A stretch of 12,588 nucleotides of DNA from a virus (Duplodnaviria > Heunggongvirae > Uroviricota > Caudoviricetes). The stretch covers positions 1 through 12,588 of the IMG/VR virus record IMGVR_UViG_2713896773_000018, one strand, 5' to 3'. Shown here one piece after another: positions 4,249 through 8,544 of this stretch. Under the pieces are notes generated by a model that saw nothing but the letters and a program-made list of their open reading frames with translations, did not search any database and was not told where the DNA came from. Every line of letters begins with the position of its first letter. Position 1 is the stretch's first letter. Made by a program: the position numbers and the translations under genes.

Positions 4249-4294
4249 CGGTGGCCTGATGAGACGTTTTGGTGAAAGCATATAAGGACTGTTG

Positions 4295-5161
4295 ATGGAA
4301 AACACTGGCTTACACGATGTTAATTTTTCACTTAGATATGACGGTTTGGATGCTGAAAAGCATGAGATTGAACTTTCTTCGCTCGGTGAATCGCTAAAGG
4401 GATTTTCGAAGATATTAGCTACAGCTGGAACCTTCGCATTAACCCAAAAGTACTCGCGAAGCACCTCAACTCAAGAGGTTAAAATTTACGCTACCGAAGC
4501 TAGGGCCAATTGTTTTTCTCTTGATACTATCATGAATTTTATCAGTCAGTCTCAATTGTTCTCAGGGTCTGCGGGGGCTATACTTGGCGCATTAGTGCCT
4601 TATATCTTCGCTAAAAACTCGCAGAAGAAAGAGGAAATGAAATACCTAAAAGAAGCACTTGAGAAGGCAATTGAGGCCCTCGGAAATAAAGATAAAGATA
4701 CCATCTCAGGTCTAATCTCAGTGATTGACAAGATGGCTAGTGAGTTACGCCCATCAGTTAGACAGGCAGTTTCCCCCATCGGTACCACCTGTAATAAGAT
4801 AAGCGTCACACCGGGGAATGGTTTCAAGCCTGCTGTAATTGATGAGCAAGATAAAGCAGTAATAGACCAGTTGGACGACGACGAAGTTCTTGGCTTAAGG
4901 GAGTATCGAATCTTCCTTACTGAATTCGACGCTCACCGAATGACCGCTAAAGTCATTATAGAAGGTGATGATTCAGATAAGCGCATCTCAGCACAAATAA
5001 GCGATCCATCTGCTTCAAAGGCAGACAACCCGTATCTCATTTCACTTAGTCGTTTTCTGTCAACGGGTCTAAGTCATGAGTCAGCGGTAAAAGTAACTGC
5101 CAAAGCAGCAGTTAGAAAAGGGGCTATTAGTAAACTTTTCATAGTTGATATTGAGCTTTAA
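4295..5161 (+). CDS. hypothetical protein (288 aa) in the rex/immunity-moron position; one short hydrophobic stretch, no recognised domain
   Basis: ATG at 4295 with AAGGA RBS (the ORF track starts at a TTG at 4292). Immediately downstream of and co-oriented with cI, followed by a terminator. AT-rich: about 38% GC in a hand-counted 130-nt sample. Hydrophobic stretch [17 protein letters not shown], then a K/E-rich helical segment. Confidence 0.8.
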
Positions 5162-5164
5162 CAA

Positions 5165-5187
5165 CCGGCCACCGCGCCGGGTTTTTT
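5165..5187 (+). terminator. rho-independent terminator ending the cI operon
   Basis: CCGGC-CACCG-GCCGG stem-loop followed by TTTTTT, directly after the stop at 5159-5161. Confidence 0.7.
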
Positions 5188-5191
5188 GTGC

Positions 5192-5401
5192 CTACTTCAC
5201 AGCTTTACTACCCTTCCTGACTATCTCAGCTGCATCCCTGTTCACACCCTTACCTATCACGTTTCCCGTTTCCTTCCGGTACCGTTCCAGCTTGTCGATG
5301 ATGTTTTGCTGGGTCATAGGTAAATCTGCCAGTGACAACTCCATGACCGCCCGCCCCATGGCGTGAACCATCATGTTCACTCTTTCTTCATCCAAGTCCA
5401 T
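5192..5401 (-). CDS. hypothetical small protein (69 aa), convergent with the cI operon
   Basis: Strong RBS AAAGGAGTGGGTA before the ATG at 5399-5401. Its upstream region is the AT-rich operator-bearing segment 5402-5500. No family recognised. Confidence 0.6.
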   Translation of the reverse strand: MDLDEERVNMMVHAMGRAVMELSLADLPMTQQNIIDKLERYRKETGNVIGKGVNRDAAEIVRKGSKAVK

Positions 5402-5457
5402 TACCCACTCCTTTTTGATGTTTTTTTCAGCATATCACTTATGCCACCAAAAAATAA

Positions 5458-5542
5458 ATCAACATAAAAATCAACAGTAAACGATTAAATCAACAAAATA
5501 AATCCACAAGGTGTTGACCTACAAATCCACATGATGTTTAAT
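5458..5542 (+). promoter_or_regulatory. OL/PL-like region: operator half-site array plus candidate PL (-35 TTGACC 5514-5519, -10 TTTAAT 5537-5542, 17-bp spacer)
   Basis: ATCAACA at 5458, 5470 and 5489; full sites ATCCACA AGG TGTTGAC (5502-5518) and ATCCACA TGA TGTTTAA (5525-5541). The promoter hexamers sit inside these two sites, as in lambda OL1/OL2. Confidence 0.6.
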
Positions 5543-5588
5543 TACTCCATCGAAACGAAACATCGACAGCTGAGCGAAGTTAGCCAGC

Positions 5589-5619
5589 GGCGGACAGCAA
5601 GTCGCCTGCTTTTTAACAA
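5589..5619 (+). promoter_or_regulatory. candidate nutL-like antitermination site: hairpin (5589-5606) followed by boxA-like TGCTTTTTAACAA (5607-5619)
   Basis: TGCTTTTTAACAA differs at one position from the E. coli rrn boxA core TGCTCTTTAACAA as I recall it. It lies about 40-70 nt downstream of the predicted PL start, preceded by a GGCGG/UCGCC stem. Confidence 0.4.
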
Positions 5620-5843
5620 CATGCAAAGTCGGAACAGCACTCAGTAATCCTGTTTAGACCCCAACGTACAAATTCGGCGCAGCACCGGGCGCGATCCGGT
5701 CGGTGTGAGGCTACCCCCTCGCGAGAGCGATAAAGGCGTGGGAACGGGCAACACTGGCTGGATGAGAGGTGCGAAGCGCAAACAGATTTATTCCAGTCCA
5801 TTCGAAGTTGAGTGGGCTGGGCTGAATCACAAGAGGATTTTTT

Positions 5844-6056
5844 ATGACTCAGACATACATTCCGGCGTGTTTAAGAGACCTTCCTAAGAAGCGTCAGAAG
5901 CCACGCAAACAGGCGATTAAAGAAGCGCAAGTGGAAGTTCTGAATAAGGCAATCGCATCGATAAAAGACGATATGCGTGCGTTCAAAACAGAAGAGCAGC
6001 GTCGCGGTCATTACCAGGCGATCAGCACACTCTCACAGATTCGTGATGAGTTGTAG
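5844..6056 (+). CDS. small basic protein (70 aa), first gene of the PL operon (N position); function unassigned
   Basis: Strong RBS AAGAGGA with a 6-nt spacer. Basic N-terminal segment LPKKRQKPRKQAIK. No clear arginine-rich motif of the lambda N type, so an antiterminator role is positional inference only. Confidence 0.6.
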   Translation: MTQTYIPACLRDLPKKRQKPRKQAIKEAQVEVLNKAIASIKDDMRAFKTEEQRRGHYQAISTLSQIRDEL

Positions 6057-6079
6057 AAGCTGATAGATAAAGCATTTCT

Positions 6080-6097
6080 CCCGCATCAGCGGGTAAC
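6080..6097 (+). repeat. copy 1 of a 17-bp direct repeat CCGCATCAGCGGGTAAC (hairpin CCCGC-ATCA-GCGGG)
   Basis: Identical 17-mer at 6081-6097 and 6303-6319, each just upstream of a gene's RBS. Confidence 0.8.
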
Positions 6098-6113
6098 TAA
6101 GTGGAGAGTACGT

Positions 6114-6302
6114 ATGCACAAGTGTCAATTCTGTGGGTACTTTCTGGCATCTGAAGAGATGCAGAGAATATCTGTAAACATGGTTGGCAGGCCTTACAAC
6201 ATCTGCATTCCATGCTCAGAAAAGTACAAAAAGAAAGGCCTGTGGGATTCGGCAAAAAACGATATCGACTGGAAATCACTTCCATGCGTCGATGAGACAT
6301 AA
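6114..6302 (+). CDS. small zinc-ribbon-like protein (62 aa; CxxC...CxxC)
   Basis: RBS GGAGAG with a 5-nt spacer. Cys pairs CQFC and CIPC about 24 residues apart. AT-rich. Flanked by the 17-bp direct repeats. Confidence 0.6.
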   Translation: MHKCQFCGYFLASEEMQRISVNMVGRPYNICIPCSEKYKKKGLWDSAKNDIDWKSLPCVDET

Positions 6303-6319
6303 CCGCATCAGCGGGTAAC
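6303..6319 (+). repeat. copy 2 of the 17-bp direct repeat CCGCATCAGCGGGTAAC
   Basis: Exact match to 6081-6097; begins one nucleotide after the stop of the 6114-6302 gene. Confidence 0.8.
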
Positions 6320-6335
6320 GACAGAGGGTAAGTCA

Positions 6336-7004
6336 ATGATTCGTCTTAACAACGAAATTAAAAATCAGCTATGCCATAACCTGCTTCTCGCATCCCCATT
6401 GTTTGAGAAAGCGAAAGCTGCGGTTAATGAGAGGGCGAAAATTGTTGAAGAAATTCGACAGGCATTGCTCAAGCAGGAAAACACTAGCGATGAGCAAATA
6501 ACTAAGGCTCGGGAAGATTTCAAAGATAACTCCTTCATCAAGATGCAGGTCGGCGCTAAAACTGCAACTTTAAAGGTCATTATTAATGGTGAGTATCACG
6601 AATTAGCCAGGAACGGTTTGGATCATCGCTATCGCCACCGTGGAAAACATATTGGTAAGCACGATCTTGAAAGCGACCTGTTCTTCGGAGCTTCCTTCGC
6701 GCCTGTAATTGATTCGGGTTTCGTTCCTGAAAGTTACAGCACGCTGAAGAAAGTTGGAAAATTACACGACCGACTCACTGAATCGACGGTAACCATCAAC
6801 GTTCTTTACGATGAAGTTGATGCCTTCCAATTGCAGGTTAAAGGTGCTCTAACCAAAGTCTCAACTGTTAAAAAACTGGCTGAGATGTGGCCTGAGGCAG
6901 TGCCATATTTGCCTGAGGTGGAACGCCGTGAAGCGACCAGCACCGCACTTGCCATTCCCGTTGAAACGCTAAACGCCCTTTGCGGCATACCAAAGAATGA
7001 ATGA
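6336..7004 (+). CDS. hypothetical protein (222 aa), AT-rich accessory gene in the ral/sieB-equivalent position
   Basis: RBS GAGGG. A long ORF with no internal stops in AT-rich DNA, followed by a strong terminator. No family recognised. Confidence 0.8.
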   Translation: MIRLNNEIKNQLCHNLLLASPLFEKAKAAVNERAKIVEEIRQALLKQENTSDEQITKAREDFKDNSFIKMQVGAKTATLKVIINGEYHELARNGLDHRYRHRGKHIGKHDLESDLFFGASFAPVIDSGFVPESYSTLKKVGKLHDRLTESTVTINVLYDEVDAFQLQVKGALTKVSTVKKLAEMWPEAVPYLPEVERREATSTALAIPVETLNALCGIPKNE

Positions 7005-7026
7005 CCCGCTCCGGCGGGTTTTTTAT
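7005..7026 (+). terminator. rho-independent terminator
   Basis: CCCGC-TCCG-GCGGG stem-loop followed by TTTTTTAT, immediately after the TGA at 7002-7004. Confidence 0.8.
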
Positions 7027-7675: not shown

Positions 7676-7830
7676 CAGTCACCCATAACGGAAAGAAGTA
7701 CACCGCCAAAAAGCTCAACGATAACGAGTGGCAGCTGACGTCCGTATCGGCACCGCGTGAAAAGCTGACGCTTAACCGCTGGCATATGAAGCTGGCTGGC
7801 CTCCTGGAACAGGTTGAGGTGAAGGTATGA
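7672..7830 (+). CDS. small hypothetical protein (52 aa; MTVTHNGKKYTAKKLNDNEWQLTSVSAPREKLTLNRWHMKLAGLLEQVEVKV), not in the supplied ORF track
   Basis: Strong RBS GGGAGG 5 nt upstream of the ATG at 7672. ATGA overlaps with both the upstream and downstream genes suggest translational coupling. Confidence 0.55.
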   Translation: MTVTHNGKKYTAKKLNDNEWQLTSVSAPREKLTLNRWHMKLAGLLEQVEVKV

Positions 7831-8333
7831 TGCGAAAGCACAAGTTGCCAAGTGCTGAGGAGATAGATTCCTTGCTGGATTACAACCCTGAAACCGGAGT
7901 ATTTACGTGGAAAGTGACGAAATCAGGATGGGTTGTAAAGGGGCGGCCTGCTGGTTCAAAAAACAATAATGGCTATCTCCGAGTTGGTATTGGAAGAAGG
8001 CACTACTTCCTTTCTCGAATCGCATTTTTCTTATGCACCGGGGAATCACCTGAAGAAGTAGACCATATCAATGGTGACAGAACAGATAACAGGGCGTGCA
8101 ACTTAAGAGCCGCAAGCCGTCATGAAAACTGCCTCAATAAGTCGGTAAGAAGCGACAGCAGGACTGGTGTAAAGGGCGTCTCATGGCGACCGGATGTTAA
8201 AAAATGGTCTGCACGATCAACTGATTCATCGGGGAAGAGAGTGTTTTTAGGTTACTACCGCACCATCAGAGATGCGGTGGCTGTCCTTAATGATTTTCGG
8301 AGAGAACAGCATGGTGAGTTTGCAAAAAATTAG
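7827..8333 (+). CDS. HNH homing endonuclease with C-terminal AP2-type DNA-binding domain (168 aa)
   Basis: HNH motif EEVDHINGDRTDNRACNLRAASRHENCLN. AP2-like segment GVKGVSWRPDVKKWSARST...KRVFLGYY. RBS GAGGTGAAGG. Confidence 0.85.
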   Translation: MMRKHKLPSAEEIDSLLDYNPETGVFTWKVTKSGWVVKGRPAGSKNNNGYLRVGIGRRHYFLSRIAFFLCTGESPEEVDHINGDRTDNRACNLRAASRHENCLNKSVRSDSRTGVKGVSWRPDVKKWSARSTDSSGKRVFLGYYRTIRDAVAVLNDFRREQHGEFAKN

Positions 8334-8544
8334 CAGCAACTTGCACTACGGCACCACCCCGCTCATTCGCCAGTGCGTCACGCCAGGCATGATGGCATTG
8401 CATGAAGGCCGCACCTATCGCGTCTCAGCAGTCATTCAGGAGCGCAAATGGGTGTACCTGCACACCGATGCAGAAATTATCCGCCTCAGTGACTGCGTGA
8501 TTGACGTCCTTCTGGACGGTCACGGAAACCCTATCCAGCACTAA
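8311..8544 (+). CDS. hypothetical protein (77 aa), start overlapping the 3' end of the HNH gene by 23 nt
   Basis: RBS GGAGAG with a 6-nt spacer before the ATG at 8311; the ORF-track start at 8272 has no RBS. Confidence 0.5.
   Translation: MVSLQKISSNLHYGTTPLIRQCVTPGMMALHEGRTYRVSAVIQERKWVYLHTDAEIIRLSDCVIDVLLDGHGNPIQH

Follow-up and report, generated by a model that had tools for sequence, protein, structure and literature searches.

The window, by which is meant the whole stretch of 12,588 nucleotides, comprises the immunity and early-left region of a lambdoid prophage of the phi80/HK225 type. Identity is about 95% with phi80 over positions 5100-5762 and about 96% with HK225 over positions 5417-6327, and a copy with 99.6% identity is carried by the chromosome of E. 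coli O19:H7. The gene located between cI and PL (4292-5161, plus strand; "40A" in phi80) matched DUF7946 and DUF7947 and is followed by a strong terminator at 5165-5187. In lambda this position is held by rexAB, and by analogy the 40A-type gene may be expressed from the prophage and serve in exclusion or defence. On the minus strand, three 21-nt tandem repeats (CCGTTTTCGGGAAGG...) were observed at 2093-2165 inside an O-like replication gene and are presumably origin iterons.

The early-left operon is read on the plus strand. Its first gene (5844-6056) encodes a 70-aa protein of unknown function assigned to phrog_5305 and is followed by a 62-aa ORF at 6114-6302. The gene at 6336-7004 matched Nmad5 (nucleotide modification associated domain 5) with a value of 6e-31. 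Its end coincides with the hairpin of an intrinsic terminator, GACCCGCTCCGGCGGGTTTTTT, which the scan reported on the minus strand as well. This sense-strand terminator, noted at 7005-7026 in the first-pass annotation, was found to be real and strong, at 7003-7024, and is the likely read-through target inside the operon. An isrK-like Rfam match at 6968-7024 turned out to be merely the terminator hairpin. Further downstream, an HNH endonuclease gene with a weak AP2-domain match (7827-8333, plus strand) lies in the early-left operon just before kil (8272-8544).

The PL promoter was placed by transferring the phi80 annotation of the pL -35, the -10 and the CI operators onto the 95%-identical window. 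It occupies positions 5514-5542 on the plus strand, with a -35 element TTGACC (5514-5519), a 17-nt spacer and a -10 element TTTAAT (5537-5542), and is overlapped by cI operator-like AAATCCACA repeats. The initial transcribed segment (5546-5592, plus strand) is common to HK639, CobraSix and BHUENT6, with 95.7% identity in HK639 and 100% in CobraSix over query positions 2-48. Past this segment the leaders of these three phages carry other RNAs. In the window it leads into positions 5589-5619, which consist of GGCGGACAGCAAGTCGCC (5589-5606) followed by the 13-mer TGCTTTTTAACAA (5607-5619, plus strand).

The 13-mer is the presumed binding site of NusB/NusE(S10). Compared with the E. coli rrn boxA, TGCTCTTTAACAA, it is equal at 12 of 13 positions, the sole change being C5 to T. 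No other site in the window matched the rrn boxA with at most one mismatch, and the chance expectation for such a match, estimated from 200 shuffles, is 0.01; the earlier description of the 13-mer as one position off the rrn boxA was therefore correct. The high-affinity rrn-type form, UGCUCUUUAACAA, is likewise matched at 12 of 13 positions in the window and at 13 of 13 in members from Stx phages and APSE phages. In the PL transcript, the start of which was taken from phi80, the boxA lies at about +58 to +71, in agreement with its earlier placement some 40-70 nt past the PL start. The phi80 record JX871397 labels the equivalent of window positions 5607-5615 "nutL boxA; putative", and in M11919, an older phi80 record, the whole stretch is given as "nutL regulatory signal". 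The phi80 records thus contain both the boxA and its nut reading, and the boxA as such is no new observation. Together with the conservation described below, the match makes it very likely that the 13-mer is a genuine, conserved boxA. A second boxA-like 13-mer, TGAGCTTTAACAA, with two mismatches, was seen at 5152-5164, where the 40A-like gene ends, abutting the terminator at 5165-5187. It is probably a chance match, since 0.35 matches are expected at the two-mismatch stringency.

Directly 5' of the boxA a GC hairpin (5589-5606, plus strand) is formed by six base pairs with one bulged G and a loop of AGCAA, so that the GC stem-loop earlier reported at this place is indeed present in the window. 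Its free energy was calculated as -8.9 to -9.6 kcal/mol, with a z-score of -1.6, which makes it unremarkable by itself. Within the phi80-type leader lineage the hairpin is kept by compensatory variants (GGCGG/CCGCC, and GCCAGAC/GTCAGGC with one mismatch). Other lineages have a different hairpin beside the boxA or none, with z-scores that are mostly insignificant. The first-pass annotation had regarded the succession of hairpin and boxA as an rrn-like element order. As a meaningful architecture this was not upheld: the 5' flank holds at most 0.7 bit per position over 47 lineages, many of which are without an adjacent hairpin, and an upstream hairpin common to the whole family is ruled out by this unconserved 5' sequence. 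Because the upstream region is unconserved and the hairpin missing in many lineages, the order of hairpin and boxA is a local feature, and the hairpin at 5589-5606 is an accessory of the phi80-type leader lineage, outside the conserved cassette. The alignment of related leaders for boxA and boxB conservation, suggested along with the earlier reading, thus gave a divided result, with a strongly conserved boxA and an upstream hairpin that is not conserved across lineages.

The hairpin and the TGCTTTTT that follows it, the U-rich start of the boxA, together received a weak terminator-like score. They could be read as an attenuator or a pause site close to the promoter, with the effect of limiting transcription from PL, given that the terminator scan reports the site as a 5-pair stem followed by TGCTTTTTAA and that compensatory changes keep the hairpin in the phi80-type lineage, where the boxA is more U-rich. 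With about -9 kcal/mol and z = -1.6, however, the stem is weak, GC next to the stem breaks the U tract, and the same boxA and downstream domain occur in many lineages that have no such hairpin. An attenuator would also leave the conservation of the AACAA half of the boxA and of the domain unexplained. We consider this explanation highly improbable.

A distant-similarity search with the leader (5545-5845) as query matched 127 phage records, among them phi80, HK225, Klebsiella KO-TP1, Hamiltonella APSE phages, Edwardsiella Edno5 and Providencia PSTCR7lys, as well as Stx2a, Stx1a and related phages including VT2phi_272, PA2, TL-2011c and P13374. Most of these matches are unannotated at the leader, and regulatory features are given in phi80 only. 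Scanning of viral contigs (twice) and of bacterial genomes (once), with nhmmer as a check, brought the number of phage or prophage loci fetched to 165. All genomic hosts that were confirmed belong to the Enterobacterales (Enterobacter, Escherichia, Kluyvera, Citrobacter and Xenorhabdus), to which the phage records add the host genera Klebsiella, Providencia, Edwardsiella and Hamiltonella. The leaders that were compared have in common a boxA and then a conserved block of about 150-170 nt, and the sequence before the boxA is unrelated between groups.

In a scan anchored on the domain, with the boxA left out of the pattern, 56 unique upstream sequences were obtained. The motif [..]T[CT]TTTAA[CA]AA was present in 52 of them and one-mismatch variants in the other four, and the distance from the end of the boxA to the P3 loop motif was 66-74 nt in all 56. 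TGCTTTTTAACAA was the commonest form of the boxA (25 of the 56). Over 47 lineages the information content stays at or below 0.7 bit per position up to 2 nt before the T of GCT and then rises to 1.5-2 bits across GCT(C/T)TTTAACAA. This onset of conservation exactly at the boxA makes the boxA the 5' boundary of a mosaic cassette. On comparison of the sequences, the leader of the window is a conserved RNA cassette of about 220 nt, made up of the boxA, a 30-nt spacer, a domain with five or six helices predicted at 5650-5760 and a predicted 3' hairpin at 5785-5828. The aligned spacer (5620-5649, plus strand) is of the AAAGTCGGAACAGCAC type; phi80 and HK225 carry an alternative GATTTACAGCGTCAATGA type, and relative to both phages the window is mosaic at this point. 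No match was obtained at 5500-5900 with the Rfam covariance models (cmscan, E <= 1), and in the literature on phi80 nutL, HK639, boxA with Stx phages, and Nus factors with prophages no account of a boxA-led leader RNA was found. What is new beyond the boxA label of phi80 is this larger, boxA-led structured leader RNA, which the first reading had missed.

The core of the cassette is a multi-helix RNA domain at 5650-5760 on the plus strand, predicted from an RNAalifold consensus of 28 diverse members and from pair counts. It would be closed by helix P1 (5650-5654/5756-5760) and a second closing helix, P1b (5660-5662/5746-5748). Within these lie P2 (5665-5668/5673-5676), which is the "nutL core" of phi80, and a long hairpin formed by its base P3a (5677-5678/5710-5711) and by P3 (5682-5691/5697-5706). 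The loop of P3 is the near-invariant GCGAUCCGG, and GGUGUGAGG is the 3' strand of this helix. A variable hairpin with a GAGA tetraloop, P4/P5, follows at 5717-5722/5727-5736. On the named structure 93.8% of the cells pair, compared with 33-45% when the partner columns are slid. Changes on both sides were found in 17 of 29 pairs, compared with 8.8 +/- 1.4 in shuffled alignments, and none of 500 shuffles reached 17; as the loci are related, these counts are not independent events. The hairpins P2, P3 and P4 form in all sequence variants, and in Edno5 the P1 strands CUGUU/GGCAG are replaced by GUAAC/GUUAC with pairing kept. Frequent G-U pairs are compatible with the plus strand only. A protein-coding reading of the domain was rejected, as none of the six frames is consistently open and the indels are not multiples of three. 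The domain at 5650-5760 is thus, on this comparative basis, very likely a structured RNA. The window copy has one U-U mismatch in P1 and one in P2, and the single-sequence minimum-energy fold of its leader conflicts with the consensus structure; the comparative structure was used for the window helices in preference to the single-sequence fold.

With regard to the order of stem-loop and boxA, the hairpin does precede the boxA in the window as first described, but the conserved, covarying partner is located 3' of the boxA, in the domain at 5650-5760, which is the lambda-like arrangement. The fixed spacing and the common inheritance of the two elements make it quite probable that boxA and folded domain are one functional unit.

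The domain is followed in the window by a 3' module of the HK225 type (5768-5828, plus strand), which consists of a small GCGAAGCGC hairpin and the long hairpin at 5785-5828 and in which conservation stops at GGGCTGAAT. The module folds at -28.7 kcal/mol. It was found in 16 unique leaders with different first genes, and the long stem shows compensatory changes. In phi80, KO-TP1 and the Stx phages the core domain is followed by another conserved non-coding 3' extension of about 190 nt, which ends in CATCGCCAAAGCATTTC (locus L001, 3650-3830, for phi80; L004, 2640-2840, for VT2phi_272; L008 for KO-TP1). The window and HK225 are without this phi80-type extension.

An obvious question is whether the RNA has a dedicated protein partner. 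Across 53 unique loci a conserved protein partner was sought, and only the upstream cI-like repressor was common to them: a cI-type repressor gene lies on the same strand upstream of the cassette in 48 of the 53 and is the only protein family that the loci share. No downstream protein family was present in more than 19 of the 53 loci. The first ORFs after the RNA belong to many sequence types, and their distance from the domain varies widely. No N36, N_peptide or other N-family match was obtained for the ORFs of the window in Pfam or PHROGs, in searches where lambda N matched N36 at 1.5e-26. The first gene (5844-6056) thus does not encode an N protein, in line with the earlier remark that it lacks an obvious N-type arginine-rich motif. 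The further suggestion, that the product of this gene might be a non-canonical antiterminator, is not supported by the distribution of the protein. Many phages without the RNA, some of them virulent judging by their names, have homologues of the 70-aa protein with about 48% identity, and in mEp213-type phages they sit in the middle of the genome. The 70-aa ORF was rejected as the cognate antiterminator because its distribution is mismatched with that of the RNA, and it is not a dedicated partner of the cassette.

The phi80 N protein was rejected on the same ground. It is absent from the window, where HK225-type ORFs of 70 and 62 aa take its place. Its homologues occur in 2 of the 53 cassette loci and also in Salmonella, Erwinia, Hafnia and Vibrio phages lacking the RNA. 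In Erwinia phage vB_EhrS_59 and Salmonella phage STGO-35-1 (L229, 2492-2791, and L230, 2489-2788) homologues of phi80 "N" were observed deep in multi-gene operons, in STGO-35-1 adjoining lysis and capsid genes, and no boxA or leader RNA was found near either of them. Such a placement in operons without a boxA casts doubt on whether the phi80 "N" family is really an N-type antiterminator. The 62-aa ORF of the window is preceded by AAAGCATTTCTCCCGCATCAGCGGGTAAC (6070-6098), a segment with a small hairpin inside, which is also found 5' of N in phi80 and of gp28 in KO-TP1. This common segment indicates that the 62-aa ORF occupies the phi80 N slot, and the segment itself looks like a portable junction between gene cassettes. 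In PSTCR7lys a small ORF about 1 kb 3' of the cassette (L010, 3525-3722), on which Pfam is silent, starts with MNSKKRQERRRKAWIAERRNKP. Its N-like, arginine-rich N terminus resembles the arginine-rich motifs of P22 and phi21 N, and a phage protein partner may therefore exist in some lineages.

These data bear directly on the possibility that the cassette is a canonical N-dependent nut site, in which an N analogue particular to each phage binds boxA and P2. This role would fall to phi80 N in phi80 and, in the window, to one of the small early ORFs (5844-6056 or 6114-6302). The phi80 records label a nutL boxA, a nutL core and N, and P2 is a covarying hairpin of 3-5 bp with A-rich loops such as UAAA and AAAA. 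The 70-aa protein contains a K/R-rich stretch, KKRQKPRKQAIKEAQ, and the ORF of PSTCR7lys with its ARM-like start lies downstream of the RNA. Against this, the RNA stays 70-95% identical and yet no downstream protein co-varies with it. The protein candidates are spread as described, with phi80 N in 2 of 53 loci and elsewhere without the RNA and the 70-aa protein in phages lacking it, and no N36 or N_peptide domain was matched in Pfam. P2 is moreover the least conserved helix and contains a U-U mismatch in the window. The lack of a nutR copy, considered next, points in the same direction, and a canonical N-dependent nut site is in our opinion unlikely.

The copy number of the cassette was found to be one per locus in all 165 loci, one in the whole phi80 genome and one in the window. 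A second copy in the PR operon was not detected by nhmmer in phi80, the window or any of the loci; the 15 nt matched at 1129-1143 are part of an ORF and were put down to chance. Of 85 unique regions, 60 had strict sense-strand intrinsic terminators in the 3.5 kb that follow, compared with 23 of 85 in the antisense control, the regions being interrelated. The median position of the terminators was 495 nt past the domain in these 85 unique regions, which are related and not independent samples.

It could be argued that the boxA is a mere Rho shield of a long untranslated leader, as in CRISPR arrays and the suhB leader. The domain would then have a job of its own: for example, it might control how the first cistron is translated or how stable it is, offer RNase III a processing site like that of the lambda N leader, or give rise to a small RNA by processing. 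The leader of the window is about 290 nt long and untranslated, that of phi80 is longer, and a large hairpin lies just 5' of the ribosome-binding site, all of which would suit this explanation. Antitermination of untranslated RNA by Nus factors from a boxA only is also established (PMC7665894). It does not fit as well that boxA and domain are always co-inherited at a fixed spacing, with the edge of the module exactly at the boxA, or that sense terminators are enriched further downstream. After the domain there is no terminator by which a small RNA could be released as a discrete product. The wide variation of the first genes and of their distance to the domain argues against gene-specific translational control. 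A Rho shield with an unrelated domain is thus improbable, if slightly less so than the N-dependent site.

Processive antitermination of the early-left operon, as proposed in the first-pass annotation, remains the best reading in view of the conserved boxA and the sense terminator downstream. Its anatomy and context make this a fairly likely function of the cassette. The antitermination idea as such was already annotated for phi80, and so it is reasonable but not new. More specifically, and with marginally less confidence, the boxA and domain cassette would be a cis-acting antitermination site, in which the boxA recruits NusB/S10 and the domain stabilises the complex, possibly without N. That antitermination works without any N-type phage protein is conceivable, and we regard it as somewhat short of an even chance.

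The events would be as follows. After loss of the repressor PL would fire, as the phi80 annotation implies. The nascent boxA would then bind NusB/S10, which would dock with NusG and NusA on RNA polymerase; this docking is established for the rrn and lambda boxA. The downstream domain, the folding of which is supported by covariation, might stabilise the modified complex, either in direct contact with polymerase or with a host factor, or by way of a phage factor that is not encoded beside it. The modified polymerase could in this way pass Rho-dependent sites in the long untranslated leader and the terminator at 7003-7024, and kil and the recombination genes would be expressed. The high affinity of an rrn-type boxA would be favourable to such a mechanism: NusB binds the rrn boxA at 130 nM and the lambda nutL boxA at 2200 nM (PMC2800207), and a Nus-dependent anti-Rho activity on untranslated RNA has been obtained from a boxA alone (PMC7665894).

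Several points count against the antitermination reading. The cassette occurs in the PL operon only, unlike lambda nut or HK022 put. P1 and P2 of the window copy contain U-U mismatches. For complexes of boxA alone, action against Rho-dependent terminators is also documented better than action against intrinsic ones.

The closest relative of the site is phi80 nutL, which is orthologous and has the same position after PL, an identical boxA 13-mer and upstream hairpin, and the same core helices. It differs in having N, the 3' extension of about 190 nt and the other spacer type, where the window has the HK225-type 3' module and the ORFs of 70 and 62 aa. The phi80 annotation covers the boxA and the P2 hairpin only, and the larger domain has gone unrecognised. 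In lambda nutL, as in the cassette, structured RNA comes after a boxA located tens of nucleotides past the PL start; the leader is long, with a large hairpin ahead of the first gene, and terminators lie further on in the operon. In contrast to lambda nut, no boxB-type hairpin with a purine-rich pentaloop is found next to the window boxA. The first conserved hairpin, P2, is 45 nt 3' of the boxA, has loops of 4-5 nt (UAAA, CAAA) and is embedded in a larger junction. The window further differs from lambda in lacking an N-family protein and a second (nutR) copy, and in the cassette the RNA partner is a multi-helix domain of about 110 nt with a boxA of the high-affinity rrn type.

The resemblance to the rrn leader is confined to the boxA, which agrees with that of rrn at 12 of 13 positions in the window and exactly in the members from Stx and APSE phages, apart from the hairpin that precedes the boxA in the lineage of the window as it does in rrn. 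Antitermination of rrn, with its boxB hairpin, boxA and boxC and the factors NusA/B/E/G, SuhB and S4, needs no phage-type N. The downstream domain of the cassette, however, has no visible rrn counterpart, and the cassette serves a phage mRNA operon with intrinsic terminators. With the stand-alone boxA of CRISPR arrays and the suhB leader (PMC7665894) the cassette shares a consensus boxA near the 5' end of a long untranslated segment. It differs in that its boxA is fused to a specific folded domain, ahead of protein genes that are separated by intrinsic terminators.

Lambdoid early transcription is made terminator-proof in two known ways, by N acting on boxA/boxB RNA or by a stand-alone put RNA. 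If the proposed mechanism is true, a boxA joined to a large folded RNA, with no protein inherited alongside, would add a third way that is a hybrid of the two. A testable candidate would then also be at hand for the manner of early gene expression in the Stx2a phages of medical relevance that have the cassette and no N gene nearby. We tentatively suggest, as the boldest and least secure form of the preferred reading, that the cassette may represent an undescribed class of cis-acting antiterminator RNA, N-independent and Nus-dependent, in which an rrn-type boxA recruits Nus factors and the folded domain replaces N. Its carriers would then be phi80/HK225-like phages, APSE and Stx2a phages (P13374, TL-2011c, PA2 and VT2phi_272 among the matches). 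For practical use, the cassette offers an RNA family for prophage annotation and a compact candidate part for engineered terminator read-through. Should it be an ordinary N-dependent nut site, the result would shrink to the conservation of phi80 nutL.

The cassette resembles put in its position right after PL, in being a structured RNA and in the apparent lack of a dedicated phage protein that tracks with the RNA. PL and roughly the first 45 nt of the transcript are the same in HK639, and the place that boxA and domain have in the window is taken there by an annotated putL-like antiterminator RNA. HK022 carries two put copies, putL and putR, and mutations in the zinc-binding domain of beta' block put. 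The cassette differs in its other fold, its boxA and its single copy, and no sequence similarity to the put loci of HK022 or HK639 was detected (nhmmer --max). Put has a length of about 70 nt, two stems and no boxA, and does not need Nus factors (PMC9378689). A GATTCGGTCAG in the put-like RNA of HK639 was considered as kin of the P3 loop; HK022 put is without GATTCGGTCAG, and the likeness was treated as a coincidence. In BHUENT6 (L011, 2575-2790) PL, the initial transcript and the hairpin are as in the window and are followed by a degenerate boxA, TGCTCATTAAGAA, and then by about 130 nt of unrelated sequence closed by a long helix (CAGCAAATCA ... TGATTTGCTG). Next to the cassette and put, the BHUENT6 leader may represent a third type of PL leader RNA.
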